The notes: generated by a model not told the origin, from the sequence alone. Shown: positions 24,844 to 61,199, counted from the stretch's first letter. The stretch is 61,199 bases of DNA from Clostridia bacterium (GCA_045577635.1 JAZNIS010000101.1:1-61199), one strand, 5' to 3'. Program-made: numbers and translations.

Positions 24844-24873
24844 TCTAATGCTTAAAAGTTCTATATAAAAAGT

Positions 24874-24902
24874 GTCAACCAATTTTTGGTTGGCTTTTTT
24901 TA
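24874..24902 (+). terminator. Rho-independent terminator after acpP
   Basis: Stem 24874-24882 (GTCAACCAA) pairs with 24886-24894 (TTGGTTGGC, one G-U pair), loop TTT, then a T-run at 24895-24901. Confidence 0.7.
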
Positions 24903-24911
24903 TTTTAATTT

Positions 24912-24942
24912 GTAATATTGTGTAAAAATTTGTCATACACAT
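24912..24942 (+). promoter_or_regulatory. Sigma-E-like (mother-cell) promoter upstream of spoIIID
   Basis: GTAATATT at 24912-24919, 14-nt spacer, CATACACAT at 24934-24942. As I recall it, the Bacillus sigma-E consensus is kmATATT-14-CATACAhT, and spoIIID is sigma-E dependent in B. subtilis. Confidence 0.5.
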
Positions 24943-24965
24943 TTTAAAAGTGTTTTGGAGTGTGT

Positions 24966-25223: not shown

Positions 25224-25236
25224 ATGGTCTTTTTTA
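25209..25236 (+). terminator. Rho-independent terminator after spoIIID
   Basis: AGACCA (25212-25217) pairs with TGGTCT (25225-25230). The loop AATTAAA contains the stop codon. T-run at 25231-25235. Confidence 0.7.
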
Positions 25237-25278
25237 TTTGTTTTTTTAAAAATAATTTTATAAAAGTAGTTTAGATGT

Positions 25279-25307
25279 TTGACTTAAATTTATTCTTTAA
25301 ATATAAT
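25279..25307 (+). promoter_or_regulatory. Consensus sigma-A promoter of giant gene 1 (TTGACT-17 nt-TATAAT)
   Basis: TTGACT at 25279-25284, exactly 17-nt spacer (25285-25301), TATAAT at 25302-25307. This leaves a leader of about 115 nt before ATG 25430. Confidence 0.7.
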
Positions 25308-25429
25308 TGTTTTAGGAGTGTAATATTTATATATATAATATATAAAATATTTTGCAATTTCTTGCTAATACTAAAAGCAAATTAATTGCTGCTTCCTACT
25401 TTAATTCAAATGAACTATGGAGAATTACG

Positions 25430-28400
25430 ATGGTTAAAAAATTAAGTGCGATATTACTTGCCTTATTTGGTTCAATATTTATTATGTTTGGGTGTGGAGA
25501 CCCGTATAAGGATTTAAAACTCACGGTTTCAGCTAGTGAGATAATTCTATACTTGAATGAAGTTAATTCTGAGGTTACCGAACCTGAAACTCCAACCGAA
25601 CCAGAACCAGGTTCTGCACAAGGAGTTACTGATGAAGAAATTGCTGCAACCTATCCATCGGAAGCATCGTTTACTGTAAAACTATCAGGGGTAGGAAAAG
25701 GTATTAGCGATAGTGTGAATCTTGTTCAATATGCTTATAACGGAGTTGAAAGCATTGTTAACATTGAACATATTGAAGGTTCTGCTGGAAGCGATGACGG
25801 TTCAAGATATAAAATTACAGCTGCAAAACCAGGTAACGGAATTTTAATTGTTACATCTGCCGAAGGTGGTAGAAGGGAAGAAATTAAAATTTCTGTTAAA
25901 ATTCCTGTAAAAAACATTGTGTTTAACGACAAAGCAAAAGCTGTTAGATATTTAGGAAATATTAATCTTTACAATTTCTTGGTTTACAATCCTGCTAAAA
26001 ATGACCAAAATGATATGACATTCTACATTGATGATTCAACAGGTGTTGATATTGTAACAAATGGTACAGGGATTATTGAAACCAGTTATGCAAAAATTGA
26101 AAATGGTATTTTAACATCAAAAGAATCAGAGTTTTATCCTGTTGATGTTGATGGTACTAGATATGTTAAAGTTTATGGTGTTTCAAACTATAACTCAAAA
26201 ATAGTTACTCAAACAATTTATTTGCCTGTTATTGAAGTTATTGATGAAAGTTCCATTGTTGTTACAGCTAATATGGAAAATGGACCATTAGATGTAGCAA
26301 AAATTAATAATAATTATGAAATTATTTTAGGACATAATTATCCAGACAATCCATTTATTTATGCTCGTGAAGTTATTATTAAATTAAACGAAGAATACAC
26401 TGTTGACCAAAAGTATGTAATTAAAACAAATTATTCATCAGTGGTTACACGGTCTAGTGTTTTCCAACTAGATGGAGATAGTGTTTCTTCTGAAGAAAGC
26501 AGATATTCTTATGCAGGTGTTAAGGAAGGTTATCCTTTTAAAAAATTCACCTTCTCACAAATTAACACAGGTGCTGATTATTTAGAAGTTTATATTGACC
26601 GTAGGGGTTACGAAGGTTTATTTACAATTACTTTAAGGTTTAAAATTACTGTTAAAGATTTTGCAACAACCTTATCTGCAACCGATGAAGAAGGTAAAAA
26701 TATAATTGATAAAGGCATAACAATTTATAATGCTTATGGTGGATCAAGTTTAGGTTCTTCCATTGTAGTTGGTTTAAGTCCAAACCCAACAAACGATTAC
26801 CGTATTGGATTATCGTTGGCAGATGTTCCAGCATCTGTTGGTAGCGGATTAACAGGTGTTAAAATGACACTTATTAGTGGTAATGAAGTTTATAGTGGAC
26901 AAACTGTTGATAATAACACAACACTTTATTTAAAACATGTTTATGAGCACACACAAATTACCGAAATTTTATCATCTGGAATTAGTCCAATTTTATACAT
27001 TACATACACATTTACATTATCTCCAACAAATTCTAGTGAAGGGTATGAAGGTTATATGCTTGTTGCAGGAATTCCTTTGAATTTTGAAGCGGGTGTAACA
27101 GATATTACCGTTCCAACAGGTGGAGAAAGTATTAAAATTAATGCTGTTACAGGTATGGCAGTTGGTGCTGAAGGTGGTGCCGGTGGTGGTGCCGAACCAG
27201 AACCAGCAGCAGTTTTAAAAGGAACCAAAAATTCATACACTAATGGTTTATATGAAGAAGAACCTGGTGCTGAACCGGGTGGCGAGCCAGGTGGAGAACC
27301 TGGTGAACCAGAAGAGCCAGAAGAACCTACCGAACCAGAAGAACCAGCATACGAAATTGTTTTAGTAACAATTGAAGATCAGCCAGCTGATTTGGCAAAA
27401 TTAATTAAAAGTGTAAAAGCAATTAGTGTAAACGGAGAACCTACCGATTACAACTTAATTGATGGAAGTTACGAAAATCCTTATTTTGACATTGTATTTA
27501 AACAAGGTTTAATTATTGACCAATATAATCGTTTGGTAATTGAACCTAAATTACAAGAAGAACAAGGAACAATTACAATTGAAGTAAAAACAAACAACCA
27601 CATAACAAAAACAATTATTGTTGAAGTGTTTGTTCCAATAATTTACACAACTGCATCAGCAGAAGGTGTAAATGTTGAAATATATAACGAAAATTCAGTT
27701 GGTTCATTTATTTATGACACAGAAAAAACTGATTATCGTGTAGTTCAAAACGAAGGTTTAACAGTTGTTGCTGAAAGCGAGTTAACCGAAGAAGAAAAAC
27801 TTGCAAATCCTGTTAAATACACAACCTTAAACAAATTAACATTATCTGTTAATAGCACAATTGGATTTAATGTTTATAACTATATTCTTTTAAACGATAT
27901 GGCAGGAAATCCACAAATTACTAGGGTTAATTATAACTCTAATGTTACAATTTCATCTTATCGTCCATACTACACAGTTGAAAATAAAATTATTGACGGA
28001 ATTAAAATTCCTTTCATCACAACAGGTAAATTAAAAACCGAAGAAACCCCACTTGAACTTGAAATTAAAATTGTGGGTTACGATAATGAAGGTGTTGAAG
28101 TTTCCCTTGTTAAAGTTATTGAATTAACAATTATTGAACCTGTTACAACGGTTAGAATTACTCCGGTTTCTGAAACTGTTTACACTTCAAATTCCTTAGG
28201 TGCTTTAAAAATTGATGGTAGCAAATTGCAATATCAATTAACAGTTTATCCAGCAAATGCAAGTAGTTATGATGGAACAGTTATTAAATATTCTTACCGT
28301 AACGATATTCTATACACATTAACAAGTGATAGGTCAGGCATTAGTTATTATATTCGTGTTGAACATTTCATAAATTTAAATCAAACAACAGGCGAACTTC

Positions 28401-31400
28401 AAGCTGTTGTTAACACAGCAAGTATAACTGATGTTTTACAAGCTTACAGAACTGATTCGTTAAAAACAATTGACCAAGACGAAATTATTAAAGCTATTTT
28501 TGAAAACAATGTTGTTGTAACAATTTATGGTACTTTAAAACAATATAACAAACCAGAACTTTCAGATAGCACAACAGTTACATTAAGAAATGCTATTAAA
28601 GTAGATAAGATTATTCCTAGTGTAGATAAAAACGGTGTTTATTTTGATTTAAGAAAAATTGATGCTGACTATGAAGGTTATGAAATTTCGTTTAATGCTC
28701 TTCCTTACGAAGCTCACAATAAAACATTAATTGTTTCTATTGCAAACGAAAGTGTTGTAACAATTGTTTCTGGTATTGATAAAAATAACCGTATTACCGA
28801 TGGTAAAATTGTTATTAAACCAGGACATAGTGCGGGCAGAACTTATATTAGAATTGCAGCCGAAGATAGTTACGAATTAAATCAAAATGGAGCTCCTGTT
28901 CCAGGAAGTTATTTAGATATTTCTATTAGGGTAGCTGATGGAACAAAGGAATTTCCTTTTGAAATTAAAAATGCCGAAGAATTTATGGAAATCGGTGAAG
29001 ATATTGCCGCAGGTTATGATTCTTATTACTATGTTCTAACTCAAACATTCTCAATTTCTGCTTATGAATTTGCTCCATTTAATAGATTCCATGGTGGATT
29101 AAGTGGTGTGTTTAGTTATGAAATGGCAGGTATTATTTATGAACAACAAAACACATTATATGGTTTAACATTCAACAAAGAAGTTGAGCCAGAAGATGGA
29201 AATATTTATTCTTATGCTTTATTTAAAGAGTTATCTGCAACAGCTGAAATTGAAGGTTTAATTTTAACTGATGTAAATTACGAATTAAAAATTTCAAATC
29301 CAGATTTTGAAGAAGAAATTAATGTTGGTGGTATTGCTGGAGTAAACTTTGGCCGAATTAAAAACAGTTCGGTTAGTGGAGTGTTTAATATTTCAGCTGA
29401 TGTTAAAAACATTAATATTGGTGGTATCGTTGGTAAAAATTTAGCTGAATTCTTTATGGATTTTATTGATACCGATGAAATTATAATTTACTCAGCAGGT
29501 GTAATTACCGATGATGGTAAACAAGAATCTAACTTTACAAATAACACTGAAAATGCAAATGTTCAAATTAACTTTGTAGGTTCAAGTGCTGTTACTGATG
29601 CTACCGTTAACATTGGTGGTGTAGTTGGTAGTGTTGAAACTTATGCTGCTGCATTTGCACCAGGCGATGGTTATGAAGTTGGTTCAAACTATGCTTATCC
29701 TGAATTCCCAATTGAAGGTGGTGTTTCAGTATATCATTTGTATGATTTTATTGAAGAACTAAATCCTACAATTTCAAATTTAGTTGTTGCATCTAGTATT
29801 GTAAGTATTGATGAAACAGCAAGTTTATATAAAGCAAACATTGGTGGTGTTGCAGGTTATGCTCACTCAACAGTGTTTGATAACATTGTTTCAACATCTG
29901 TGTTAAGGGGACACTCTAACATTGGTGGAATTATTGGTAGGGCAGAACACTCTGTAATTACTAATTCTGCTGTTGAATTTGGAAACCAAGGTCAAGTTGG
30001 CGAAAAATCAATTGCTATTAGTGGTTACACAAATGTTGGTGGTTTTGTTGGACATGGAACAAATGTAAACATTATGTTTAGTTATGCTAGAGCATACTTT
30101 AACAACCGTCCGGTAGATAATGTTAATTATTTTGGAAATATTGCTCTTGTTGAAAATGCAACCGTAACAACAAAAAATGTTGGTGGATTTATTGGTTACC
30201 TTGATTCTGAAGAAGTAAGTTCTCAATGGTTCACATTAGGTATCCCAGGTTATTCATTAGATACTTTAATTTCTCCAACAGAAGACATTATGGATTTTGT
30301 TTATAATCTATCTGCAAATGCAATTGTAAAATCTTACTTTAATGCAGATATTAATGTTGGTTACACACCATTAAGTGGAACTGTTAATGTTGGTGGATTT
30401 GTTGGTGCTATATCTTCAACAGGTCAAGTATCAGGTGTAGATCCTGTTCACATTACAAACTCTTATGTTTATGGAAACATCTGCCAAGCAGAACCAACAG
30501 TGTATGAGTTTGTTAATAAAGCTGAAATTGATCCAGCTGACTTTACAAATATTGGTACTTTCACAACATTTGTAGTTGGTGACTTACCAGAATTACAAGA
30601 AAATTATTATAACTTTAATTTAACATCTGTTTTAGAAAGTGGAAATAAATTAATTGAAATCACAATAAATTATACAAACGAAATTATTTCCGAAGGTGAA
30701 GGAGTTGATGCTATTCAGTATCAAATTCAAAATTACAGAATTAAAGTTCACCCTAATAAAGGAAAATTAATTGGTAATCAAGAATATCAACTTTCTAGTG
30801 CAGTTGTTGATGTTATAGATACAATTATAGATGGTGTTGAAACAACAACAATTCAAACTTCAACATCAATTTTACAAGCAAAACTTCCTGTGGATGTAAA
30901 ACTTGAAAATGTTTACTTTGCCATTGGCGAAGAAAAAGGAATAATTGAAACTGCACAAAACACAACATTTATTGATGTTTGTGACATTGTAAGTAATGAA
31001 ACTATTATTCAAAACACTTCTGCATTAAGAAATGAAAAGAACAACACAATAACTTATGGTTACAAAGATTTAAATAACATTAACTCTTATGCAAATTTTG
31101 GAAATGTTATTGAAGCAAGTTTAGATAATGTTGAATTTTATCCAAACAAAGTATGGGTAAAATGTGACGAACTAAACAGTGGATATCCTGTATTATTTGC
31201 AAGAAAACATGATAATGGCGAAATTTTATTTAAAGTTTTACCAACCGAAATTAGAATTAATGTTGCTGATAATTCTTTACTAGATTTTACAAATTTAAGT
31301 TATGTTCAAGATGGCGAAAACATCGTGTTATTCTATAACAAATTAATTAGTGGTAGAAGTTACAATTATGTTAACTACTACAAACTAGTAACTGCTGGCG

Positions 31401-34400
31401 AACCTGATTTAACAACCGAACCTGTTACAGCTTTGGAAGTTAATTTAGATATTGTTGACCTATATTCTAAATATGGAATTGTTGCAAACTATGATAAAAA
31501 CATGGTTATAACAAGTTCAAACCCTAACATTGTTAGTGTTCAAGGTGGAAACCTAATTAAAACAAACGGTGTGGGAAGGGTAACATTAACAGTTGCAAGC
31601 AGATTAGATGTTTCTATTTACGATACAATTGAAATTTTAGTTGTTGAAGGTTTAAGTGATTTTGCTTTATATAAAACAAAGAATTTAACAATTAACAGAA
31701 ATAAATTAGTTACTATTAACAAAGCCGACATTGTTGATGAATCTTCTCCATCAGCTTACTCAGGTGCAATTACTCAAGTTATTGATAAAACATCTAACTA
31801 TGCCTTAGATACAGTTAACGAAGATGGTTTAACATTAACCGATTGCAACGGTGTTTATGCTAGAAACACAAATCTTGGTGTTATGATGGAAGTTTCAAGT
31901 GTAGGTAATGGTGAAGCAACCTTAAATGGTGCAAGCATAGAAAAAGGCACAACATATTTATTTAGGTCTATTTCAGATTTCTCATTTAGGGGAACATATA
32001 AAGGATTATTGTATATAACAGTTACACCATTTATAGTTACAAACGATGCTAATTTTGGTACAACTTTAAGTCAAACAACATCAAAACCTATGTCAATTGA
32101 TAACTGTATTTTAATTAATCAATTATCAAAAACATATAAGTTTAATGTAGTGCCAAAAGCAGAAAGCATTGAAGTTATTGATAAATCAAAAGCAAATTTA
32201 GACCCAACAAAACATGTTGATGTAACAATTTCAACCATCACAAGTGATTTTGTTAAGAGTGGTGAAAGTTATAGTGTAAACGAAACAATTAATGCAACAA
32301 TTACCGACTTAACAACAGGTAAAAATGTTGGTGCATTTGTGTTAGATATGGCTACACAAGGCACAAATACAAGTTTTGTTACAGTTGAACTTTTAGAAGA
32401 ATATGTTCTTCCAACAAGCGATGTTTTAAAAATTGAATACATTAAAAAACTTCGTTTAAGATTTGATGCTGAAAAATATAAAAATCGCACAAGTGGTGTA
32501 ACCTTTAACTTAAAAGATATTCGTTATAGGTTTGATTTCTATCCAACATCAAACACAAACATTGTTGCAGTGTTTAATTTAGATGTTGTTCCTAGATTAA
32601 CAACTAACATTGAAACAGCATACTATCCAAACTCTGAAATTTCATCTACCGGTGGTTTCTATCCACAAGAAAGTGAATCGGAATATATTGTTCCATCTCG
32701 TGCTGGTTTATTAAAAATTGAATTACAACCTGATTTTAACAATACTGAATATGTTGAAGTTACTGTTGATGATGAAATGAAAAAATATGTAAGCTTCACA
32801 CAACAACTTGCAATTATGGCTAGTGATGAAAACAGTTATGTTACAGGTTATCGTACAACTTTAAAACAAGCAGAAAGTTTACCAAACTTCTCTGGGGTTA
32901 GATTAAGAAATGAAAGTGTTATGGTAAATGGTACAAGCATTTACTACACAGGTAATTATTATCTTCAAGTGTTCTTATCAGAAAAAGCTCCAATTAATTC
33001 AAAGGTAAGTTTCACAATTACAGGTTATAGAACAGGTGATGGTGAAGCAATAATAACAAAATCAACAATTTTAACCTTAACAGTTCAACCACTTCCAAGC
33101 ATTACCTTAACATATAAAGGTGCACAAGAAGGTTTAATTGCAAAAGGAACAGTTGCTGAACTTGAAGTTGTTGCAAGTAACTTTGAAGGCGAAATTCAAT
33201 TAGTTTCTTCTTGCCTATCTGGTGATGTTCAAAACATTTCACAACCTATTTATGATTCTGAAAAAGATAAATGGTATGTTGAAATTGGTATTAATGCCGA
33301 AGCAGGTGATACTGCAATTATTAGAGCAACAGCATCAAGATATTTAAATGGTGTGTTAGAAGAAAGAACAAGTACTGTTAAATTGTTTATTGTTGAATAT
33401 ATAATTGAAGGTGCAAGATTAGAAGGTTCAACCTATGTTAATGGTGGATATCAATTTGAAGTGTTAAACGGAACACAAACACCATTAAATGTGGTATTTG
33501 ATGTAACAAAAGGCGAAGGTAATGAAGCCGTTGATTCGTTGTTAACCAACTTACAACAATTAGCAAGTGGTAAAACAAAACCTCTTGGTGTTGATAGTTA
33601 TATTAACAATTGGTGGCAAGTAGAAAATGGAGTTTTCACAAATGCCCTATATTCAAATGCTTTATATGGAAATTACCGATTTGTTGATACAAACAAAGCC
33701 GATTTAACCAAGAGCCATTTCTTTGCTCTTGAAAGTATTGTTGTAAGCAGAAATAACATTATTGGTTATCGTATGCAATATTTCTATAATGAAATTGGTG
33801 TTCCAACTTTATTTATAGGTGATAGTTACGGAAATCAAGTTTACGAATTAGAATTCACATTTACATTCGTAATTAAAGATAACTCTACTTACGACCATCC
33901 AAACCCAATTAAAAATGTAACCGAATTTATGGCATTAGGTGGTTTAACCGTTAAAGGTGAACAAACCGAAATGGGTGCTGTAACAGAAGGACATTACATT
34001 TTAATTGTAGATTTGGTATTAGATGATTATTATCCATTTGCTGCACAATTTGATACATTAGATGGTAATGGTCATGTTATTAAAATTAACAGTATTAACA
34101 CCGAAAAATATAAACAAGGTGGAACTGTTAATGTGGGATTATTTGAAACTGTAAGTGAAAAAACAGTGTTAAAGAATATTACTATTGATATTTCTCCAAT
34201 GCTTGTTACAACACAAATGGCAAACAATGCATTAAACGGTATTGAAGGTTCAACTTCTTATATTGATTTATCAGGAATTGAAAGCTTTAACTTTGGTTTT
34301 GTTACAGCAGAAAATAATGGCTCTATTACAAATGCAAAAGTAATTAACTCAAAACCTACTGTTATGTTAGATAATGCTCCAAAACATGTGTTAATTAATA

Positions 34401-43258: not shown

Positions 43259-43274
43259 AAATTATTGCCAAAAT

Positions 43275-43312
43275 AAAAAACAATGCAAAGTAAAATTTGC
43301 ATTGTTTTTTTT
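43275..43312 (+). terminator. Strong rho-independent terminator after giant gene 1
   Basis: AAAAACAATGCAAA (43276-43289) pairs with TTTGCATTGTTTTT (43296-43309) around the loop GTAAAA, followed by a T-run. Confidence 0.85.
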
Positions 43313-43444
43313 GTTTACTTTAATAAAAAAATAATAAAATTTTTGATTAAAAACGGATAAATTTTTAGTTAAAATTTCATAGTTTTTTTAGGTTAAAATT
43401 TGCCCTTATTTAACCCATAAATTTTAGTAAGTTATGCTATTTGT

Positions 43445-43473
43445 TTGACTAATAGTATAAATATATTTATACT
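43445..43473 (+). promoter_or_regulatory. Near-consensus sigma-A promoter of giant gene 2 (TTGACT-17 nt-TATACT)
   Basis: TTGACT at 43445-43450, 17-nt spacer, TATACT at 43468-43473. RBS GAGGAAG at 43563-43569. ATG at 43576. Confidence 0.65.
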
Positions 43474-43474
43474 A
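43453..43474. promoter_or_regulatory. Perfect 22-bp palindrome over the spacer and -10 element of the giant gene 2 promoter; candidate operator
   Basis: TAGTATAAATATATTTATACTA equals its own reverse complement. I checked this base by base; the next flanking pair (43452/43475) breaks the symmetry. Confidence 0.5.
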
Positions 43475-43575
43475 CAAGTAGGCCTAAATATATTATTAAT
43501 ATAAAATATATATAAGAAGTAATATTTTTATAGGATTTTCAAAAACTAATATTGAATTTTTTGAGGAAGAAATTT

Positions 43576-52500: not shown

Positions 52501-55500
52501 CAACAAAAATCAAATCAAATTGAATTAGCAACATATGATAATACAGCTGTTGACTTATATGTTGATGCTAGGGCTTATAAATCTGTTAACTTTGGTGTTT
52601 TAGCAGCAGAAAACTCTGGTTTAATTACAAACTGTCAAATTATTAATGATGCTGGTGCTTTAAGGGAAGAAAGAGAATTAACAATTGCTAGACAATATTT
52701 CTTAACCGATCCAAGATATATGGATTATAAAACATATGATGGAGGCGGAAACCTAGTATTTAATGAAGAACAATTCATTTTAGATAATTGGGATGTATTC
52801 CGTAAAGGTCAAGTTCAAAGATATGATGCGGCAGGCAAATTATATGGTGAAGTAACAGGTAGCGATACCGATAGACACTTATCTGTTGTTAGGGTTGAAA
52901 CAACAACAACAGTTGAAACACAAATTCACTATATGTCTGGTTTAGTTGCACAAAATGTTCTTGATGGTGAAACATCAGAAGTTGGTTATATAACAAATTC
53001 AAGTGTTGAAAACATTACAATTAATGGTGTTGGATATGTTTCAGGATTTGTTGCAAACAATGCTGGTAAAATTAGTTCATCTTACTTTAAAGGTGCAAAC
53101 ATTATTAACCGTGTTGCAGAAAACTATGCTGAAGCTGCTACTGCCGGATTTGTTGTTAAAAACAGTGGTGAAAAAGCTTCAATTCAATATAGTTACATTC
53201 AAGGCCGTTTAGGTGAAGGCGATAAATATGCAAACCCTAAAACAGGTGGTGGATTAACTAATGGCGATAAAACAGGATTAACTGCTGACAATAAAGCAGG
53301 TTTTGCTGGATATAACTATGCAAATAACGGTGGTAATGCATCAATTAGTAGTTTAAGAGCATTAAATGCACTTATCACAACAAAAACAAATGCTGCTGGA
53401 TTTGTTTATTCTAACGAATCAATAATTTCAAACAGCTATTCAAATATTATTGTAAACAGCTCAATGGGTACTAGTGGTTTCGTATTTACTAATGCTAAAA
53501 AAGGAACAATTTCATCTTGTTACTCATTAAGTAGTGTTAAAACAAACAGTTGGGATGCAAGCCCATTCACAGGTAGGGCAGCAACTCACGAATATAACAA
53601 CGAAAACCCAGATGGAATCGTTGATTGTCACTACCTAAAATTAGGTTCTGACGAAAACAGTTCTGCATTAGAAGTTGAATATGCAGAAGATTATTTGGAA
53701 GGAGACGAACCAGCAACTTCTTTAGGTTCTTCTCAATTTGGTGAATATAACACCTTCCAAAGTTATGCATTCAATACTGACTTTGAATTAAGTACAGCTG
53801 ATAAAGTTACTCGTGCAGTTTGGTTTATTCCTAACGATGCATCTTCTGATTTATATGAAGAACACTTCAAAAACACATTCTATGTAAGAAGTCGTCCTGA
53901 ATTAGTTGCTGCAAACTTAAGAACAATTTCTGTTAGAGTTTGGGTAGGAAGCGAAACTTCAAACGAAAACTCTTATACATATGTTTCAACAGTAATTGGT
54001 CAAGGAATTCATAACCCATTACTAGTTAAAACAGCCGAAGATTTCAACCGTTACTTAAATTATGAATCAACTATTGATGATAACGAAAGAAACTTTGCAA
54101 TTAGATTTATTTCAGACATTACATTTAACAAAACTGACTTAACAGCTCAAACCTATAATATGGATTATTATGGTGACCTTGATGGTAATGGTATGGATAT
54201 TAATCAACTTCGTTTAGTATCTGACACTGATTTTGAAAATGTTGAAACAGGTCAACCAATTACCGATTTAGGATTGTTTGGTAGAATTATCACTAAGGAT
54301 TTAGGAGATGAAAACTATCAAAGAGGTGTTGTAAGAAACATTAATATTGCTGTTTCTGAAGTTGCAGGTAGCAAAGTTATGAATGTTGGTGCACTTGCCG
54401 GTTCTATTGAAAATGCTGATGTATTTAATGTTAACATTTCTGGTGATGTAGTAATTCAAGGTAAAAACCTAGTTGGTGGACTTGCCGGAATTATTAAAGG
54501 TGATAGTGAAATTGTAAATATTACAAGTTCATTAAGTGCCAGAGCAGCATTCTTTAAAGAAACAAACCGTTTCAGCACAAATTTCCCAACCGAACTTCCT
54601 GCTGTTTATGGAACATTTAACTTGTATTATAGCGAACTTCAAGGTGATGAAGTTTCTAACTCTGACGAAGTAAGTTATGCTGGTGGTATTGCTGGTGTAT
54701 TTGATGTTAAAGAAAGAAGCGAAGAAGAAGGAATGAACCCATTAAGTTTATTCAATGCCAAAGCTCGTAGTTTACAAGTTACAGGTGATGTAACAATTAT
54801 CGGTGAAGTTGTTGGTGGTATTTTTGGATTAAACGGTCAAGAAGCAACAACAAGTGACTTATCGTTTATTGTTAAAGAAAACACAAATCCAAAACTTCGT
54901 GGTAGCCGTATTGTTGGTGGATTAGTTGGTGAAAACCGTGGTGAAATTGAAAGAAGTTATATTGCTCACGAATCAACTTTACAAGAAAAAATTGATCAAT
55001 CTTACAAAACAGGTATTGCTGGTGGAACTTACACAAATAGCAATTTAAATTACAATGATTTATATTCAAGTAATGCACACTACACAGGTGGTTTAGTAGG
55101 ATTTAATAATGATGGTAAAATTACCAATGCTTACTCAAAACTTAATGTTATAAATATGAACAGTATGTTTGCTGGTGGATTTGTAGGATTAAGTATTGGT
55201 GGCGAATATAATTTCTGTTACACTGTTGGTTCAGTTTCTGCATTTAGTTCAGCTGGTGGATTTATTGGTGCACAAGCACAATATCCATTCAACATTACCA
55301 AAACAGGTAGTGGCGAAAATGAAGTAATCACTTATTCTGCTAACACCAGATTTGCTAGATATATTTATTTTGAACCAAATTCAGAAAATGGAAAATCTAT
55401 TGGTAGTGGCTCTACAAAATTAGTTGGTGTAGTTGCTGCAAACTTATGGAGACCAGAAGATTTAGTTACTAACCGTACAACATTATATAGTGCCGAAGAT

Positions 55501-58500
55501 TTAAAAATTGGTACAATGATTGGTGTTGCTGTTATGGCAGATAACGGCTCTGGTAAATATCAATTAAGCGATATTATTGATATTGGTGATTTAACCGAAA
55601 GAAAGAAAAACGAAACAATCTTCTTTATGCAACCAGAAATTGTAAGCTTAAGACATAATGCAGTTTACAATTCAAATGATTTCTATAAATTAATGCCAGA
55701 AATTGGTGCATTTGAAGATAAACTTGGCTTTATTTATAATCAAAAGAATTTAACTCGTGATTACAGATTCTCAACTTCAGTAGATTCTGCAACCGATGGT
55801 GACACTTACAACGAAGCAGCAGATTCTTCTGTTATACAAGTTACAAGACCACAAGGTTTATCTGGTTATGCAGCAGAGCCAAAGAAAAATGAAGATAATG
55901 AATATATCGTAAATGGTGTTGCAGGTACCGGTGCAGGTTATACTTCTGCAACAGCAGATAAAAACTATTATCGTTATAGCCGTATGCAAAACATTGGTTC
56001 GGCTAGATCATTAAAAGAAATTATTACAACTCTTGATATCATTGAAACTGATGCTGCTGGAATGGGTGACCACTCATCTGATGACCTAGAAGGCAAAAAA
56101 GATTCTTATGATGATATTATTAACACTCCAATATTTAACACTTGGAATGTAAACCGTTGGACAGGTGTTAGAAAGGAAACTGCTGATGATCAAAACACAG
56201 TGTTCCCTTATTTGGAAGCAAAACCAGAAAAAACAAAAATTTTAGTATATCAAAAATCTGACCTTGAATTAATGTCTGTTTATGTTAATGCAGAATTCGT
56301 ATTAATGAACGATATTGATTTACAAGCTGATGGTCCAAGCAGTTGGGCTCCGGTAGGAACAAAAGCAATTCCATTTAAAGGATTGTTACATTCCAATGAT
56401 CGTCCAGCAACTCCTGGTGCAAATTGGCCTTATACTATTTACAATTTAAGTGTAACTAGTGCAGGTGCAGCTTATGCCGGATTAGTTGGTTATGCAGCCG
56501 AAGCAGAATTTAAAGATTTCAATTTATCAACAGCAAGTGTTGTTGTTGATGGTTCGGAAGATACTCCATTATTTGTGGGTTCTTTAGTTGGTTATGCATC
56601 TAGTGGTACAGTATTTGAAAATATTAAAATTTTAACCGATAATGCTAAATACAAAACACCAGATGGTGCAGCTTATGGTGCTAAATTAACAACAAGCACA
56701 GCAGCTTCTGTTGGTGGATTAGTTGGATTTAGTGATATGGGAACAATTAATAATGTTGATTTAAAAGATGTTGAAATTAACATTACAGGTATTGGTGACC
56801 TATCTAGGGTAGAATCTGAAAGACCAAAAACATTAGGTTTTGGTGGTGTTGCAGGTTACTTAACTAGTGCAGAGCCAGCAACTCCTATGGTTGCAGGTGC
56901 ATCTGTAGAAGGCACAATCAATCTAAAATCAGGAGCTACAGCAATTCTACTTCCAGACGATGCTAGATGTGGTGGTAGCACAGGATTCTCATTTGATGTT
57001 GGTGGTGTAATTGGAAGAAGCAACGATGCTGATTCTTCTCAAGCAAGAGTTCTAAATATAAGTAGTAAAGTAAAAATCACAGCAAACCTAAATGCTGGTG
57101 GAACAACAAATATTAGTTCTATTAACATTGGTGGTGCAATTGGTAAAGCACAAAACACATTGTTTACTGAAAATGAAGTTATTGATGATGAAACAACTGT
57201 TGTTACAAACATTTACAGAAACTTTGTTGAAGGTTCTGGCTCAACCGATATTGATGTAGATTTAACAAACTTTGCAAAAACTGCAGATTCTAGAACATCA
57301 ACATTTAATGTTGGTGGTGCAGTTGGTTCTGTTTATGCTAGAGATGCTGAACTTACAGCAACATATGTAACAGAATCGTTATCTCAAATTTCTGTTGGTA
57401 AAACAACAGCAGTTAAAATGACTGTTGATATTACAAATTCAACATACTTAAATTCAAATGTTGGTGGTGTTGCAGGTTACACTGAAAATGCCACAGTAAA
57501 ACACCTATATTCAAATGTGGACATTAATGTTACAGATGGTTCAGCAGGTGGTGCAACTTATGGTTCAACAATTATTGCCGGTGGTATAATTGGTAAGGTT
57601 GTTAACGGACAAAATATGTCAAACATGCATTCAGTAGGTATGGTATATGTTCATAGTTCATTAACCGGAACAATAAACAATAATGTTTATGCAGGTGGTG
57701 CTTTTGGTGATGTTTACTTAGGTGAAGTTGCCACAGTTCTACAAACAATTAATAAAGGTGTATCACAAGCAACTGTTTCTGTTGATATGGCTTCTTCCGA
57801 TAACGATGGAACAGTAATTGCAGGTGGCTTTATTGGTAGAATTTTTGGTGGTAAAGTAACTCAAAGTGCAAGTGTTGGAAAAGTTTTAATTCTAAACGGA
57901 AAACAAAACAAAACAAATTATGCTGGTGGTTTTGTAGGATTTATTAATATGCAAAACCCACAAATTGAAATTCCTGCTATTGCTGGTGGAGCAGTTGCTT
58001 CTACTCCAAATTTACTAGCTTTTGAAAATAACTATAGTTCAGCTGATTTACAATTAACTTCAATTTTTGAATCTGAATTAGATTCTTATGCAGGATTGTT
58101 TATTGGTAACATTTATTATGGTTATGAAGAAGGATTTAAACATTTAACATTAAAAAATAACTATACAATTGGTAAGTATATTTACACAGGAAATAATGCA
58201 GCAAATTATTATGATTCATTATATATTGAACGAAATAATAAAGGTGGATTCCTTGGTGGATATACCTATTATGCTGGTTCTGGTGTAAATTCAACCAATG
58301 TTGAAAGAGCTTCAAACCTTGTGTATGTAAACAATTTCTATAATAGCGATTTTGTTCCTTACACAAATGGTCACTTAAAAGGTTTATCAACAGAAGTTAT
58401 GTTATATAATGCAAATGCAACATTTGCAGAATTTAAAGATGTTAAAACAACTAGCGAAGCTGGTGCTGAAGTTTCAGTTTGGACAGTTGCTAATAACAAC

Positions 58501-61197
58501 TATCCACGACTTGTTTGGATTGAAAACAGTAGTAATGCAATTAATGCAACAACAGGTGCAGTTGATAATGCTAAATTAGAAGATTCAGTAGCTGGACATT
58601 CAATTTTCAGTGTTCAAACTGAAGGTTCAAAAACTCGTCCATCAACAACTGTTGATGCTTCACTTGCAAAACAAACATATATTGCAACTACAAGTTCACA
58701 AATTGGCAACTTAAATGGTAAAACATTAACTAACAAAACAGTATATGTTAAAGGTAATCAAGCATTCTCTGGAACAATTACGGAAGTTGATGCTTTAAGT
58801 GCAATTATTGGTTTATATGTTACATCAGGAAGTTCAACCGTAATTACAACAAATAATGGTTATTTAGCTAATAGTTCAGTTGTTAAAAATGTAGTTGGAA
58901 CTAATAATGGTGTAATTTATAGATTAACTTTTGCTGGAACAAATTTGGCAAGCACTCTTGTTACAACCAATAATGGTGGAATTGATACAATGGTCGCAGA
59001 AGATACAAGTTCTAGCCAAAGTGCAGTTTCATTAATTGGAACTAATAATGGTGTAGTTTATCGTAGTATTATTAAAAATACAAAAGTAACTTTTGCATCT
59101 ACATTAGGAAAAATTAAATCTTCTTACTATTTAAGCACAGTTGATTCTAAAACTGTTGCAAACTACTTTAACCAAATGGGTAGTGATTATAGTTATGAAA
59201 TAAATGGCACAGGTGTAAATTTTGACCTTGCTAACATGGATGGAAACATTTTAAGTGGTGACGGTTTTGATTTTGCTAACGATTGGATTGTTGTTGAACC
59301 AAAATCAACCGCAAGTGCAGTTGATAAATTAACATTAAACTATGGTGCTCCAATTTTAAGATATGAATTGGCTACAGCTAATTCAACAAGGGGTGGCTAT
59401 AACTTTGATGAAGGTATTCGCAGTGCTATGTACTGGACAAGTACCGGAACAACATTTAACAATTTATTAGTTAAATATGCAAATCAAACAGTTATTAAAT
59501 TAAACAATGAAACTCAATTTGCAGAAATTGCACAAGCAACTTCTGTTGGTGAAGTTGTTACAGGATATCCTGTTTCAGAATTAGAAACAACACCTGCAAT
59601 TTCATCAGTATATAACAACGAAAGTGCAATTACTGATGCAAGCACTCTTGTATCAGGAACAACTTATAATTACAAAGAAGTTGAAACAACAGAATATGTT
59701 TACGGTGTAAAAACTGTTAATAAACGAAAATTGTTAAACTTCCAAGCTTCTGATATTTACTTAATGAAAGACATGGATTTAGGTGGACAATTATGGACAC
59801 CAATTGGATTTGGCTTTGATAATTTACAAGTAAATGTTGGTGATGTAATTACAAGTTTAAATTCAAGTAGTCATAATGTATTTATGGGTACATTCAATGG
59901 TTCAGGTTATATTATTTCAAATGTAACAACTATTGAATCAAATAAAAATGTTGGTTTATTTGGAACTGCTTATGTAAATGCTGGTGCCGATATTCCTTCA
60001 TTTGCAAACATTGTAATTAGAAACAGTAACTTTATTAGTGTTTCTAAAAATGGTGGTTTCTCACTAGCAGGTGCATTAGTTGGTAGAGTTATTTTAGGAA
60101 AAGATAATTCTACACAATATGTATTAAGCAAAGTGGGTACCGAACATGCAAATGTATTTGCAACAAACCGTGCAAGTGGTTTAGTTGGTGATTATTTAAG
60201 TTTATCTTCAGCAGATTCTGTTGGAACAACAAACTTAACAAGATTTATTAAAGCTAAAATGAATTATGCTTATGTAAATTCAAATGTTATTGTTTCAAAA
60301 GGAACAGGTAATGTTGCTGCTGGTTTTGTAAACTACGGTAATAATAATATTTATCAACCTTCTCATGCATTAGTTGCACATACAATCAACACAGGTTTAG
60401 AACAATTATACTTCTCTGGTGAAATTGGTGATTACAGATTAAATTCAGATAATGATTATAAATTTGTAAATCAACACACCGATTTATCAACAGGTTATGA
60501 TGGTGATAATGCCGTTGAAGTTTCATCATTATATGGTATGGTTAAAAATGTTCTAGCTAGTAATGATACAATTGCAAAACAAAGTGTATATGCTCTTGAT
60601 TTTATGGATGCTGTTGTAATGAACACATCTGGTAATGTAAACGATGAGTATATGACTAATGAATCATTCCCTAACTTTGATTGGGGTAGTGTATGGACCA
60701 GATTAACTGGAACAAACGACAACTATCCTGTATTAATTAGTAAAGTTGGATATTGGGTAGAAACAATTAAAGAACCAGGATTTACTCAACCAAGTTATAA
60801 TGGTTCTACAAAAACTTATTCTGTTTCTACTCCACAACAATTAGCATGGATTGCAAACAAAGTTAATACTGATACATCATCTTCAGTAATGAGTGGTCAA
60901 ACAGTTCAATTAACAGCTAATATTAATTTGTCTGGCAGAGTTTGGTCATCAATTGGTTACAACTCTGGTTCAGGATATCATGCATTTGCTGGTAAGTTTG
61001 ACTTTAACGGAAAAACAATTTCTGGAATGACAGTTTCTGGTGCATATATTAACAAGTCAGATTATGCTGGTGATGTTGATATTGAAGAAGAATTTGTTGA
61101 TGTTGTTTGCTTAACATCAAAAACAGTTGGTTTATTTGGTGCAACCGAAGGAGCAGAAATTACTTCTAGCACAGGTGTAGGTAAAATTAATGGATTG
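43576..61197 (+). CDS. Second giant lipoprotein-anchored GLUG/beta-helix + Ig-like surface protein, paralog of gene 1; 5' complete, 3' end beyond the window (more than 5,874 aa)
   Basis: Not in the ORF track because it has no stop in the window. ATG at 43576. MINLRKKLIAICLMLFSTVMLIYGC carries the lipobox. I read codon by codon from 43576 to about 46500 with no stop and spot-checked 53761-53820 and 61141-61197 in the same frame. The N-terminus aligns to gene 1: YKNLTLEVSSSEIEIILNE vs YKDLKLTVSASEIILYLNE, and GGPVIITVTTLEGNLSKNITVTVVKPVSEIIFN vs GNGILIVTSAEGGRREEIKISVKIPVKNIVFN. GLUG-type turns include FVGGLVGFLNNSAL, NVGGVVGYNIGLVQGN and YAGGLVGKMSNGSIF. A Big_2-like segment SSNSSVLSVEFDNSGNVKFVAKSAGYALLTITS lies at ~49530-49630. 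Confidence 0.9.
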   Translation, partial: MINLRKKLIAICLMLFSTVMLIYGCDKNEYKNLTLEVSSSEIEIILNEDSPESNLFPITAKVSGMPKGYNGAVSFSVPVNNGVIEAVKANPDVNGDGESIGIFEAKKQGGPVIITVTTLEGNLSKNITVTVVKPVSEIIFNTLNIPVVKGVKTDISKFYTIKPDGTLQDDVNLELVPLNGGESEIIKVETDGKYLTVPTDVNLTEFQLRVRSAIDSEIITSSLATVKVINVLPTDLITLIHDNNTPTIDEDDLALPKNAKGEYELVLATNTGNLFSKTLFFDFNADPNENNNYIVSVKGRTNSGSIIDEDGLENRFVEIDNHVSIRNGFEIKARGNGNTKITFVIDRADFPGYFTQTITLNVSVQAYPTKIEVNNSVNETKLDVLKLFVNYDVETFGTPFRVVVSNETGPMLDQKVIANLTSGEENISLYDANKTLIEWGSEIFAGAKYYLKHNFTENPTESISLTLVSTTYNKIFLNLPITVETQPINLTTTSPEVFLDITKPEVKTALVINGLTGTINYSRDLEIVELSNCDIINYEASATQITVWPKSDIIGVCSLKVVANNGSSVSFIITLYEQLITGETSVSIAGEVIAAKEAVGGTYPEVNIKNGLNIPIYFTINGRNYTSLDETGLIYHSSSSNSQVVQSTEMNYSLQTKNMSGSAHIELQIIGFDEYGEQVKAVYFEILINVSVPLTTLTSDSPQEIIYDINSLSSSQISEYGIYTIELSSSPFNANFGINDLTWSCEYNGGQLRAQKTVREDRNTIDYTFRTSNYDVITLTTTKTNFKVAEVKCQIASSTTSVITFNIVAKVDQQFKNENGLIISDPKSAKVRFIVYKAEKVSDFVFENVASKGTKANPIYQLTYDERDLEFNGSIYTNEANCIKTVYFNVYPVTALNKDLGVLSSSGVVSATVNNVLKSITITLLSKPASTDVIKLTVYPLDDVNGTDIGKHKIIQIRVLDGRSERTAFEIKNETDLLKVNSSLSSYYVLASDVAISNEWVPIGKTLTSVQQFSGNFSGKYVVYDENDVVVTTSYYSISGLNINNNDYDYYGLFAYLGENSKVSDLSINNFSIRATISHDRNVFVGALAGYAEGEINNVSVNDQSGVQAFNGLYYENATVGETTSGIYITAETNTNIHANYFVGGLVGFLNNSALHLATTAVADSAGHKVFEGLKTLYKVSGSDYDYYNKQVVNSKAIVQMNVYVKTNNASFVGGLVGFNNRAVITADKQTGIVFGSNSAQVVTAINANLSPQETAFNNYSSFGGVVGFNNGVVENIIAKASIFGVYENSTDYYNIKNVGGVVGYNIGLVQGNKSFPLLQGYINVGGVVGKSATAIVTLKVNGNDKEFKNGKMAVGDGLFTMVDSVEYNKYFRIHIEEFETQSLSGEDFLDLMEDYLGDLSKAETVYNNYYAGREGDYYYVIKISDHDIFDTDPKISYSYSYNTRYVGIASEDSYDYLVLEEIAVILGKYKSNHIENNSVEFLQLDDKVKIYNSAIVGFDNIGGLVGEYVGLSAPLNVIEVGSDKATAGQVTFTAIAYNTVHNYSLKPVEQKSGTVGGNGFYGNILLSNAHYFRVDKLNRNYAGGLVGKMSNGSIFSNQVFASIQGELAGLGGLVGKVEGTTNISNCSFVGAIINRDSAATAEVKPATGGLVGDSLKATTLFAHSGYASATDEEAYKYSSSCVWYYSVNPKNQISWVAGDHNNIASCYFKAKDINGNYIKTYEDTTDPEYEYKKSMGYIGDSRVELDYTYYHSDGTKKEFVVDGFTYTTKKVWVDTLSANEKSCPDCNPSFVFDEDEIDETKLTEFIDDNKAYRFVGEDLNGDGLVDAHTGVDYSNKTLEQFKTAYLNQTSWYVNELINDGLPVILSSNKLTPTGTDSYKISLLANFPPTDIVLENKENKIDTFIKNLPDDLSSVVYYYGLDSSNYKTGTDTLNFTSTNSADKISTSTAELNAQLLKQNSYSLDEILTLSSIPTFIDGNSFKIKSSNSSVLSVEFDNSGNVKFVAKSAGYALLTITSEYNVSLSKTVAVNVANASDELKLGYFESGQQKYVQDNQVLVINKSTEEKQITLPVSSNLSANQIFNGNSFPEVTESFKLISNRNSGVRYYFAGLTTSGGGTPCPTIYYATNDIEGLINSIQLKINNLKFGYEYIGQIAGATPTNYYTVYIDVPYGTTANFVGIEETLNDITLISVPYLVTTSAKGETNKILLANLGDYDDGVLLTEGELRGVAVPAENTVVLNQNRFDVASYDYTQYTADYISNLESLITMFKVRVTKATWNLTKDKDAIANDVKTESSFNITIETDKDDEELYLAYFHSFGSESVERKISYTNLFANLGGEVNVGNITLQGNNKTITSVGNKNYVNYNFTVLVKDENKNNVQDVVSTTFKFFVVKSDAVLETDANGFINNAISSVVESNMLLSLPVTLTPQTITEIDLKHYPNSESKVIIDAMGNKITEINLNEIAYENIIPGNVGVLKAYISPYYASYDELHIISSVSTGSVVLFEQLMARTTETAAGLIYNGSYETLIVSNNKVENGIKLVKVSNINQDREQNYDGNIYIRTMLNSFKSEADKFTLTIRAYKNGVLVKEKPIVLDVQTPPSLNLSVNGADSAPIARGTEVKFDAQLTDINGNIDFSGSYMYRINSNGIEVKVGSINADFMVKNNSGVYSVSVNNDVASDRYIKVVGTVTKQINGETITHSDYITLHVTDFVIEEISVESVTNGNFVGMFNQPYSLIVRISKATYNPANTDTVKEKIKKLEADFSRYSETDSILQTWKLVKTLQGVGSATRYASLKVGFNGNDSFVIGTRVEEALGNIPVYTLQNTKFGSGDILAAVVQFVYTDQGIIPVLNDADRVTYSSSEYFYEKSFEFGFGFYRIRDEERPDPIETAEQFKQMADGVDYILVSDIVLEDWEPFREDLKINSLDGNGYVITIKSFSLPTYTEGQALLDSANIGIFSKIHAGTTIKNLTIEVPSQQKSNQIELATYDNTAVDLYVDARAYKSVNFGVLAAENSGLITNCQIINDAGALREERELTIARQYFLTDPRYMDYKTYDGGGNLVFNEEQFILDNWDVFRKGQVQRYDAAGKLYGEVTGSDTDRHLSVVRVETTTTVETQIHYMSGLVAQNVLDGETSEVGYITNSSVENITINGVGYVSGFVANNAGKISSSYFKGANIINRVAENYAEAATAGFVVKNSGEKASIQYSYIQGRLGEGDKYANPKTGGGLTNGDKTGLTADNKAGFAGYNYANNGGNASISSLRALNALITTKTNAAGFVYSNESIISNSYSNIIVNSSMGTSGFVFTNAKKGTISSCYSLSSVKTNSWDASPFTGRAATHEYNNENPDGIVDCHYLKLGSDENSSALEVEYAEDYLEGDEPATSLGSSQFGEYNTFQSYAFNTDFELSTADKVTRAVWFIPNDASSDLYEEHFKNTFYVRSRPELVAANLRTISVRVWVGSETSNENSYTYVSTVIGQGIHNPLLVKTAEDFNRYLNYESTIDDNERNFAIRFISDITFNKTDLTAQTYNMDYYGDLDGNGMDINQLRLVSDTDFENVETGQPITDLGLFGRIITKDLGDENYQRGVVRNINIAVSEVAGSKVMNVGALAGSIENADVFNVNISGDVVIQGKNLVGGLAGIIKGDSEIVNITSSLSARAAFFKETNRFSTNFPTELPAVYGTFNLYYSELQGDEVSNSDEVSYAGGIAGVFDVKERSEEEGMNPLSLFNAKARSLQVTGDVTIIGEVVGGIFGLNGQEATTSDLSFIVKENTNPKLRGSRIVGGLVGENRGEIERSYIAHESTLQEKIDQSYKTGIAGGTYTNSNLNYNDLYSSNAHYTGGLVGFNNDGKITNAYSKLNVINMNSMFAGGFVGLSIGGEYNFCYTVGSVSAFSSAGGFIGAQAQYPFNITKTGSGENEVITYSANTRFARYIYFEPNSENGKSIGSGSTKLVGVVAANLWRPEDLVTNRTTLYSAEDLKIGTMIGVAVMADNGSGKYQLSDIIDIGDLTERKKNETIFFMQPEIVSLRHNAVYNSNDFYKLMPEIGAFEDKLGFIYNQKNLTRDYRFSTSVDSATDGDTYNEAADSSVIQVTRPQGLSGYAAEPKKNEDNEYIVNGVAGTGAGYTSATADKNYYRYSRMQNIGSARSLKEIITTLDIIETDAAGMGDHSSDDLEGKKDSYDDIINTPIFNTWNVNRWTGVRKETADDQNTVFPYLEAKPEKTKILVYQKSDLELMSVYVNAEFVLMNDIDLQADGPSSWAPVGTKAIPFKGLLHSNDRPATPGANWPYTIYNLSVTSAGAAYAGLVGYAAEAEFKDFNLSTASVVVDGSEDTPLFVGSLVGYASSGTVFENIKILTDNAKYKTPDGAAYGAKLTTSTAASVGGLVGFSDMGTINNVDLKDVEINITGIGDLSRVESERPKTLGFGGVAGYLTSAEPATPMVAGASVEGTINLKSGATAILLPDDARCGGSTGFSFDVGGVIGRSNDADSSQARVLNISSKVKITANLNAGGTTNISSINIGGAIGKAQNTLFTENEVIDDETTVVTNIYRNFVEGSGSTDIDVDLTNFAKTADSRTSTFNVGGAVGSVYARDAELTATYVTESLSQISVGKTTAVKMTVDITNSTYLNSNVGGVAGYTENATVKHLYSNVDINVTDGSAGGATYGSTIIAGGIIGKVVNGQNMSNMHSVGMVYVHSSLTGTINNNVYAGGAFGDVYLGEVATVLQTINKGVSQATVSVDMASSDNDGTVIAGGFIGRIFGGKVTQSASVGKVLILNGKQNKTNYAGGFVGFINMQNPQIEIPAIAGGAVASTPNLLAFENNYSSADLQLTSIFESELDSYAGLFIGNIYYGYEEGFKHLTLKNNYTIGKYIYTGNNAANYYDSLYIERNNKGGFLGGYTYYAGSGVNSTNVERASNLVYVNNFYNSDFVPYTNGHLKGLSTEVMLYNANATFAEFKDVKTTSEAGAEVSVWTVANNNYPRLVWIENSSNAINATTGAVDNAKLEDSVAGHSIFSVQTEGSKTRPSTTVDASLAKQTYIATTSSQIGNLNGKTLTNKTVYVKGNQAFSGTITEVDALSAIIGLYVTSGSSTVITTNNGYLANSSVVKNVVGTNNGVIYRLTFAGTNLASTLVTTNNGGIDTMVAEDTSSSQSAVSLIGTNNGVVYRSIIKNTKVTFASTLGKIKSSYYLSTVDSKTVANYFNQMGSDYSYEINGTGVNFDLANMDGNILSGDGFDFANDWIVVEPKSTASAVDKLTLNYGAPILRYELATANSTRGGYNFDEGIRSAMYWTSTGTTFNNLLVKYANQTVIKLNNETQFAEIAQATSVGEVVTGYPVSELETTPAISSVYNNESAITDASTLVSGTTYNYKEVETTEYVYGVKTVNKRKLLNFQASDIYLMKDMDLGGQLWTPIGFGFDNLQVNVGDVITSLNSSSHNVFMGTFNGSGYIISNVTTIESNKNVGLFGTAYVNAGADIPSFANIVIRNSNFISVSKNGGFSLAGALVGRVILGKDNSTQYVLSKVGTEHANVFATNRASGLVGDYLSLSSADSVGTTNLTRFIKAKMNYAYVNSNVIVSKGTGNVAAGFVNYGNNNIYQPSHALVAHTINTGLEQLYFSGEIGDYRLNSDNDYKFVNQHTDLSTGYDGDNAVEVSSLYGMVKNVLASNDTIAKQSVYALDFMDAVVMNTSGNVNDEYMTNESFPNFDWGSVWTRLTGTNDNYPVLISKVGYWVETIKEPGFTQPSYNGSTKTYSVSTPQQLAWIANKVNTDTSSSVMSGQTVQLTANINLSGRVWSSIGYNSGSGYHAFAGKFDFNGKTISGMTVSGAYINKSDYAGDVDIEEEFVDVVCLTSKTVGLFGATEGAEITSSTGVGKINGL

Positions 61198-61199
61198 GC

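Follow-up and report, generated by a model that had tools for sequence, protein, structure and literature searches.

The analysed stretch of DNA (hereafter the window; GCA_045577635.1 JAZNIS010000101.1, 61,199 nt, Clostridia bacterium) has a GC content of 29-35%. Two giant genes arranged head-to-tail, together with the promoter region of the first, occupy positions 25279-61199, i.e. 58.7% of the window. These genes and the features mapped below between 25279 and 61199 lie on the + strand. Gene 1 (25430..43258) is contained in an open frame that spans 25352..43258; its ATG at 25430 is located 7 nt past a GGAG sequence, and the sole stop codon is the terminal one. Translation of this ORF gives 5,942 residues, in agreement with the initial annotation, and the mature protein is calculated at ~641 kDa with a pI of 4.8. 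Gene 2 (43576..61199) starts with the ATG at 43576 and is cut by the window end; its frame contains zero stops over those first 5,874 codons. At 29-35% GC, frames of 17.8 kb exclude a chance origin.

Each gene is preceded by its own near-consensus promoter, and a strong terminator lies between the two, as had been noted from the sequence at the outset. Both promoters are of the sigma-70 type. The gene 1 promoter, TTGACT-17-TATAAT (25279..25307), matches 11 of the 12 consensus positions, and the gene 2 promoter, TTGACT-17-TATACT (43445..43473), matches 10 of the 12. In alignments with three to four other species, the hexamers of both promoters were invariant while the neighbouring DNA had diverged; for gene 1 this was seen in L001 and L005, and for gene 2 the hexamers were invariant in four species. 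The 5′ leader of gene 1 (25308..25429), delineated from the sequence and the alignments, carries a conserved TA-rich element and the GGAG ribosome-binding site (25419-25422). The two promoters have a common layout, with a TA-rich element early in the leader, which indicates that the promoter was duplicated along with the gene. The 318-bp spacer between the genes contains only the gene 2 promoter and the intrinsic terminator of gene 1 (43275..43320). The latter consists of a 15-bp stem and a T-tract (43275-43310), with a folding energy of -16 kcal/mol (z = -4.2 versus shuffled sequences). Three relatives (L001, L014 and L019) have hairpins of unlike sequence at the same position. A spore-specific structure was considered as the product of the locus and rejected, because each promoter matches the sigma-70-type consensus; no sporulation-sigma consensus was noticed in the sequence.

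The 3′ end of gene 2 is supplied by a public homologue, P0001, which is 98.8% identical to the gene 2 product across all 5,874 residues, without gaps, and extends to 7,469 residues. We therefore estimate the full-length gene 2 protein at ~7,469 residues (~803 kDa, pI 4.8). The four members of the P0001 cluster, derived from separate assemblies, are 7,468-7,469 residues long. Thus, the initial description of two genes of ~6,000 codons holds for gene 1, and gene 2 is considerably longer.

Large ORFs in a metagenome-type assembly call for caution, and in one relative (L006) gene 1 is split into two pieces of 4,615 and 672 residues. Nevertheless, we regard it as effectively excluded that the giant ORFs are artefacts or pseudogenes created by repeat collapse or chimerism. 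No internal repeats were detected at the BLAST level in either protein, both frames are intact, and the lengths concur between independent assemblies. In the P0004 cluster, six of the eight members have 5,907-5,915 residues, the other two being fragments of 2,573 and 3,289 residues. Over window positions 22197-29337, a stretch that takes in 3.9 kb at the start of gene 1, the independent ENA contig L027 shows 98.5% nucleotide identity. Among the 1,302 gene 1 codons compared between these two strains, there are 31 synonymous and 12 non-synonymous differences, which indicates purifying selection. Moreover, orthologues are present in at least 19 MAG species.

The genes upstream of the pair encode Pth, Mfd, a PrsA-like PPIase, a flippase-like membrane protein, a polysaccharide deacetylase, an M23 (SpoIIQ-like) peptidase, an acyl carrier protein (ACP) and SpoIIID. 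In a more distant relative, rpoB and rpoC are located downstream of the second giant gene. The locus is part of the core chromosome of a spore-forming Firmicute and not an island; a mobile island was rejected on account of this pth-mfd...spoIIID...rpoBC setting. Near the pair, the window lacks genes dedicated to secretion, as the initial annotation had also stated, and likewise sortase and processing genes; the neighbours are housekeeping and sporulation genes. No tRNA or Rfam features were found in the window. In exact look-ups, the ACP protein was matched, and the M23 and SpoIIID proteins gave no match. The housekeeping and sporulation neighbourhood offers no hint to the function of the pair.

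Relatives of the two proteins are few. When 1.84 billion representative proteins were searched exhaustively with HMMER, only 157 were recovered, of which 57 scored below E 1e-30, and many of the 157 are 5,000-7,800 residues long. None of the members of clusters P0001, P0004, P0002 and P0011 carries a name. Scanning a single genome for each species gave 24 loci in 19 assemblies, all of them MAGs of uncultured Clostridia, Christensenellales or ‘Eubacteriales’; those with a stated source come from the animal gut (goat colon, roe deer caecum, Hadza gut). A metagenome scan with a three-sequence alignment gave two loci, and one with the P0001 C-terminus alone gave none. In the MAG loci, a first gene of 4,617-5,965 codons precedes a second gene whose frame continues without a stop past 7,300-7,500 codons, and each starts with a lipobox. 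The polysaccharide deacetylase, a small ORF and the M23 peptidase recur upstream. Both genes recur in the same order and behind the same upstream neighbours in at least 19 MAGs, and in these searches the family is confined to Clostridia MAGs of the animal gut.

The initial annotation described the two genes as a tandem pair of paralogs. This is correct, but the two are distant relatives: the proteins share 24-26% identity, in colinear blocks at about residues 1-575, 874-1322, 2377-2975, 3127-3837 and 4322-4456. In a neighbour-joining tree of the conserved core, the first genes all group apart from the second genes. We conclude that the duplication is older than the clade and that positional orthology has been kept since.

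The N-termini, MVKKLSAILLALFGSIFIMFG↓C in gene 1 and MINLRKKLIAICLMLFSTVMLIYG↓C in gene 2, are consistent with the lipoprotein signal peptides proposed earlier. We used a PROSITE PS51257-type rule, in which a positively charged N-region and a hydrophobic core are followed by [LIVMFWSTAG]2-[LIVMFYSTAGCQ]-[AGS]-C, with the cysteine at position 15-35. According to this rule, the gene 1 signal peptide (25430..25495) has the lipobox MFG↓C with Cys22, which is conserved in orthologues, and that of gene 2 (43576..43650) has IYG↓C with Cys25. The same pattern is present in 42 of the 49 family members longer than 3,000 residues, and the remainder are mostly near-misses or truncated. Hydrophobic segments are confined to the signal peptide, and no C-terminal membrane or hydrophobic segment was found. 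The LPXTG motif is absent from the gene 1 protein and from the window part of the gene 2 protein. Neither of these, nor the P0001 C-terminus, has an SLH, CWB2 or choline-binding Pfam domain. The HEXXH motif is missing from both proteins, and the Peptidase_M26 family has no match in gene 1 or gene 2. Motif and Pfam searches thus concur with the lack of catalytic and anchor motifs noted before. The window contains no lgt or lsp gene.

Profile searches recognised little of either protein. The only Pfam family that recurs over nine gene 1 orthologues is Glug (PF07581, gathering cut-off 20.5 bits), which was found in the N-terminal third of four of the nine. Glug scored 30.2 bits in gene 1, above the cut-off, and 17.3 bits in gene 2, below it. 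At the level of the motif, both proteins qualify. The GG[ILV][VA]G turn occurs 16 times in each, versus about 0.15 occurrences expected (0.14 for gene 2), an enrichment of ~100-fold, and the motifs form four clusters in each protein. The GLUG-type turns of the initial annotation are therefore present in both proteins, with a significant Pfam match in gene 1 only. The other Pfam matches in the nine orthologues were three single-member ones with E values of 0.002-0.009. The initial annotation had also expected matches to Big_2 (PF02368) and to beta-helix families, and the Pfam searches gave none. Big_2 had no match at E ≤ 0.01 in either protein or any orthologue, and none in the N-terminal regions even at E ≤ 5. 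Pectate-lyase-type and other beta-helix HMMs had none in either protein or the nine orthologues, and the pectate-lyase type had none in the lenient N-terminal search at E ≤ 5. With profiles of each third of the gene 1 family, the PDB sequences gave no match at E ≤ 1. More than 95% of the sequence of the pair has no Pfam or PDB relative.

Two AlphaFold2 models, calculated with alignments of 22-26 family members, covered residues 2377-3400 (model 1; pLDDT 77, pTM 0.64) and 1150-1950 (model 2) of gene 1. Model 1 begins with four predicted Ig-like beta-sandwich domains at residues 2388-2821 (32591..33892; mean pLDDT 77). Foldseek matched the model to titin I65-I70, DSCAM, nectin, Kit, cadherins, the Sap S-layer assembly domain and phage Hoc, with E values from 1e-9 to 1e-5. 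The Ig-like domains of the initial annotation are thus supported as a predicted fold in this region only, and not by the Big_2 HMM. When the N-terminal region and residues 1690-2385 were compared with the four modelled domains using hhalign, the probability stayed below 4%. The Ig-like array is followed by beta-helix module 2 (residues 2825-3236; 33902..35137), the most conserved core of the family, which starts at an LDGNGH cap with an invariant LDGNG and contains invariant alignment columns. A small alpha/beta connector (residues 3281-3381; 35270..35572) was modelled next to it, and the connector HMM also matches gene 2.

Model 2 shows residues 1169-1689 (28934..30496) as GLUG beta-helix module 1, a right-handed beta-helix composed entirely of short strands, with pLDDT mostly 85-95; the Pfam Glug match of 30.2 bits falls in this module. 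The prediction agrees with the beta-helix modules carrying GLUG turns that had been proposed from the sequence. Residues 1690-1950 were left without a modelled fold.

HMMs derived from the two modelled helices were used to map further modules, and those detected fall on the GLUG clusters. In gene 1, the module 1 HMM and the clusters point to GLUG beta-helix module 3 at residues 3425-3833 (35702..36928), module(s) 4 at residues 4276-4801 (38255..39832) and module 6 at residues 5245-5634 (41162..42331). The module 2 HMM (domain E 1.4e-5) indicates a probable module 5 of the NxGxIxN type at residues 4916-5095 (40175..40714). In gene 2, the gene 1 module 1 HMM predicts GLUG beta-helix module(s) at residues 964-1661 (46465..48558; E 3.7e-16), a region with a GLUG cluster and the 17.3-bit Glug score. 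Additional modules probably occur at residues 3555-3853 and 4294-4867 (54238..58176), again from HMM matches and GLUG clusters. BLAST, phmmer and HMM comparisons suggest that residues 2428-3364 of gene 2 (50857..53667) are homologous to the Ig-like array and beta-helix 2 of gene 1, and the HMM of the modelled helix also matches gene 2 residues 2886-3364. A composition scan located a Pro/Glu-rich low-complexity linker near the N-terminus of gene 1 (residues 601-657; 27230..27400).

The closest structural relatives of module 1 in Foldseek were BACOVA_03286 (PDB 3N6Z) and the IgA1 metalloproteases of S. pneumoniae and G. haemolysans (6XJA, 6XJB, 7UVL, 7UVK), with probabilities of 0.94-1.0. The matched region of the proteases is, as we take it, their non-catalytic N-terminal domain. 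Unlike the IgA1 proteases, the pair has no M26 peptidase domain, no HEXXH and no sequence match in the PDB at E ≤ 1. The pair also differs from the proteases in having five or more copies of the helix within a single chain of 6,000-7,500 residues. The streptococcal IgA1 proteases are LPXTG-anchored. In the viral library, the Foldseek matches were uncharacterised right-handed beta-helices.

The right-handed beta-helix is common to GH28, polysaccharide lyase and tailspike enzymes, which do appear lower in the Foldseek lists. One could therefore read the two proteins as surface-tethered, multi-enzyme glycan depolymerases, in which some of the helices are catalytic in the manner of pectate lyases, GH28 enzymes or tailspikes. 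We consider this improbable. For module 1, tailspikes, GH28 enzymes and lyases were matched with probabilities of 0.33 or less and TM <0.27, far behind the IgA1-protease and BACOVA_03286 chains. Furthermore, none of the nine gene 1 orthologues has a Pfam glycosidase, lyase or CBM family, and the PDB profile searches mentioned above also argue against such an activity.

The two proteins end differently. At the C-terminus of gene 1, residues 5641-5942 (42350..43255) form a Tyr/Asn/Trp-rich domain that has no Pfam match and is kept only in close orthologues. The C-terminal 1,595 residues of P0001, which correspond to the part of gene 2 beyond the window, contain at least four Flg_new repeats (PF09479, the Listeria-Bacteroides repeat) with 146 bits, versus a cut-off of 27 bits; the Flg_new part makes up less than 10% of the full-length gene 2 protein. 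In giant filamentous beta-helix proteins, C-terminal toxins are often present. This background, and the conservation of the last ~300 residues of gene 1 in close relatives only, would fit fibres that deliver a variable C-terminal effector upon contact, similar to polymorphic toxins. Such a role is very improbable, as no toxin domain and no secretion or processing genes were found, the 318-bp spacer leaves gene 1 without a small immunity ORF, and gene 2 ends in Flg_new repeats, followed in a relative by rpoB.

Taken together, we favour the interpretation that the pair encodes anciently duplicated, lipid-anchored surface fibres of uncultured spore-forming gut Clostridia, with an adhesin-like and non-enzymatic role; we put the probability of this reading at roughly 0.55. 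The adhesive part of it follows the usual reading of Flg_new and GLUG proteins of gut microbes and of the giant proteins of gut Clostridia. Proteins with Flg_new and GLUG repeats are described as adhesin-like and as enriched in gut-associated microbes (PMC9723798; West-Roberts et al. 2023), and some combine both (PMC9723798). The occurrence of the beta-helix fold in many glycan-degrading enzymes counts against the adhesin reading.

The same architecture could also serve as a structural envelope layer, i.e. a dense brush, coat or spacer that substitutes for an S-layer and has no specific ligand. We find this reading clearly less probable than the adhesin-like one, although several observations speak for it. 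The core genome retains the two genes in one order throughout the clade, the duplication is ancient, the two promoters are strong and near consensus, and both proteins are acidic and modular. In addition, the window shows no S-layer protein of the SLH or CWB2 type, and one of the structural matches of the Ig-like array is the Sap S-layer assembly domain. The Sap match, however, is one of many generic matches to this array, with TM of about 0.1-0.2. No lattice-forming or wall-binding domain was found, and Flg_new repeats, as present at the C-terminus, typically act as binding modules.

According to the adhesin-like interpretation, each gene would be transcribed separately from its sigma-70-type (sigma-A-like) promoter. 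The protein would be exported by Sec, the lipobox cysteine would be lipidated by Lgt, and the signal peptide would be cut by signal peptidase II, so that the N-terminus would tether the protein to the outer face of the cytoplasmic membrane. The N-terminal ~1,150 residues, including the Pro/Glu-rich linker as a putative wall-spanning spacer, may form a stalk across the cell wall. In the remainder, arrays of Ig-like beta-sandwiches would alternate with at least five or six GLUG right-handed beta-helix modules. The resulting fibre would probably be semi-rigid and acidic and, as estimated from typical domain dimensions, may exceed 100 nm. Candidate distal binding modules are the Flg_new (beta-grasp) repeats in gene 2 and the Tyr/Asn/Trp-rich domain in gene 1. 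Such fibres might let the cell attach to mucus or glycans of the host, to food particles or to other microbes, with no enzymatic activity of their own. The route proposed in the initial annotation (Sec/lipoprotein export and N-terminal lipid tethering of a fibre) is supported by the lipoboxes, the predicted folds and the lack of catalytic motifs and of any other anchor.

A bolder version, which we rate as rather unlikely, holds that the paralogs form an obligate pair and co-assemble into a clade-defining, lipid-anchored fibrillar organelle, whose GLUG helices, with the fold seen in the IgA1-protease chains, engage secretory IgA or mucin of the host. If true, this organelle would be the main surface structure of the clade and a new type of host-interface apparatus. 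Apart from this, ~40 kb of coding sequence kept since before the gut clade diverged suggests importance for life in animal guts. The family is also a defined target for structural and binding work on host-microbe or microbe-microbe attachment.

The locus represents a new, unnamed and Pfam-dark family of giant Gram-positive adhesin-like surface proteins. The kind of system has precedents in the Giant1-5 proteins of Apilactobacillus kunkeei and the giant Listeria-Bacteroides repeat proteins of gut Clostridia. Giant adhesin-like proteins as such, including tandem sets in small Firmicute genomes, have been known before. Giant1-5 are extracellular proteins of 3,000-8,000 residues encoded by consecutive head-to-tail genes (Tamarit 2015, PMC4494060; PMC12863079, 2026). 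Judged by gene arrangement and architecture, they are the closest described analogue of the pair; they are treated here as analogues and not as relatives, and a sequence relationship is not expected. Both occur in a small, low-GC, animal-gut Firmicute, and in both the duplication preceded the divergence of the strains or species. Recognisable domains are nearly absent from both, and both contain beta-solenoid modules and have a proposed adhesin role. The Giants differ in having an ordinary signal peptide, a single SRRP-like beta-solenoid at the N-terminus, a long alpha-helical rod and, at the C-terminus, an SH3b-like wall-binding domain. The pair, in contrast, has an N-terminal lipobox, all-beta modelled parts, several GLUG-type helices and an Flg_new tip, and no SH3b match was found in its family by Pfam.

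Proteins of 10,000-30,000 residues with Listeria-Bacteroides repeats were described in gut Clostridia by West-Roberts et al. 2023. Flg_new adhesin-like gut proteins resemble gene 2 in the Flg_new repeats, which gene 2 has at its C-terminus, the gut-restricted distribution and, in gut Clostridia, the giant size, whereas the conserved core, with the Ig-like array and the LDGNG-capped helix, is specific to the family of the pair.

Other giants include a 7,651-residue Ig-repeat adhesin of Mobiluncus mulieris and the staphylococcal Ebh/Embp proteins (PMC9302970, PMC10619420). Like the pair, these surface proteins are single chains of 0.6-1 MDa with many small domains and are presumed to be long-reach adhesins. 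They consist of dozens of near-identical repeats, unlike the pair, which has no repeats at the BLAST level. Ebh/Embp and the Mobiluncus adhesin have a C-terminal membrane or LPXTG anchor. The predicted anchor of the pair is, in contrast, an N-terminal lipid, which would extend the known anchoring modes of megadalton-scale Gram-positive proteins.

The two giant lipoprotein genes share a TA-rich element located just downstream of the -10 hexamer, at window 25308-25360 ahead of gene 1 and at 43474-43530 ahead of gene 2. The element, ATATATTAT...TATATATA, is preceded by a TAAG/TAGG motif in both cases. It was also present at equivalent sites in several species (L001, L005, L014 and L019, loci with orthologous giant genes in related gut Clostridia MAGs). 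The TA-rich stretch may serve both giant genes as a shared operator or leader element through which the pair is co-regulated.

Both coding regions also differ from their surroundings in base composition, with a GC fraction of 0.30-0.355 in the giant genes (window 26001-60000) and 0.24-0.30 in the flanking genes (1-26000). The encoded proteins contain 8.6-9.5% Gly, and the raised GC may reflect this Gly-rich composition. The N-terminal 1,305 residues of the gene 1 product (window 25430-29337) differed in length by 3 aa from those on L027, an independent contig from another strain of the same species. In the roe deer caecum MAG (L006, 3131-19003), the gene 1 orthologue was divided into two ORFs of 4,615 and 672 aa by a stop or frameshift at ~ 16981; the split marks a pseudogene or else is an error of assembly.

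Residues 1690-1950 of gene 1 (window 30497-31279), which follow the first predicted GLUG β-helix module, were left unmodelled, as the AlphaFold2 pLDDT was below 40 despite an alignment of 22 sequences. This stretch had no Pfam match, and hhalign detected no similarity between it and the Ig-like domains of the same protein; disorder, misalignment or a new fold could each account for the lack of a model. A word-indexed protein search returned no match for two conserved stretches of the giant family, 600-1,460 aa in length, used as queries. Members of the family are nevertheless present in that collection, one of them with 98.8% identity, and the null result is not taken as absence. It seems that the Gly/Asn/Ser/Thr-rich giant sequences swamp the 8,000 candidates to which the index is limited.

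Among the neighbouring genes are two tandem paralogues (window 8654-10931) whose products, 372 and 380 aa long, belong to the CPBP family of intramembrane glutamic proteases. A 573-aa PrsA-like foldase with a PPIC-type rotamase domain is encoded downstream of mfd (17351-19072) and may aid the folding of secreted proteins. The region directly upstream of gene 1 (23906-25223) carries genes for a small M23 peptidase, an orphan acyl carrier protein and SpoIIID. The peptidase has an N-terminal membrane segment and a weak SpoIIQ-like match, and its gene order relative to the giant genes is syntenic in relatives.
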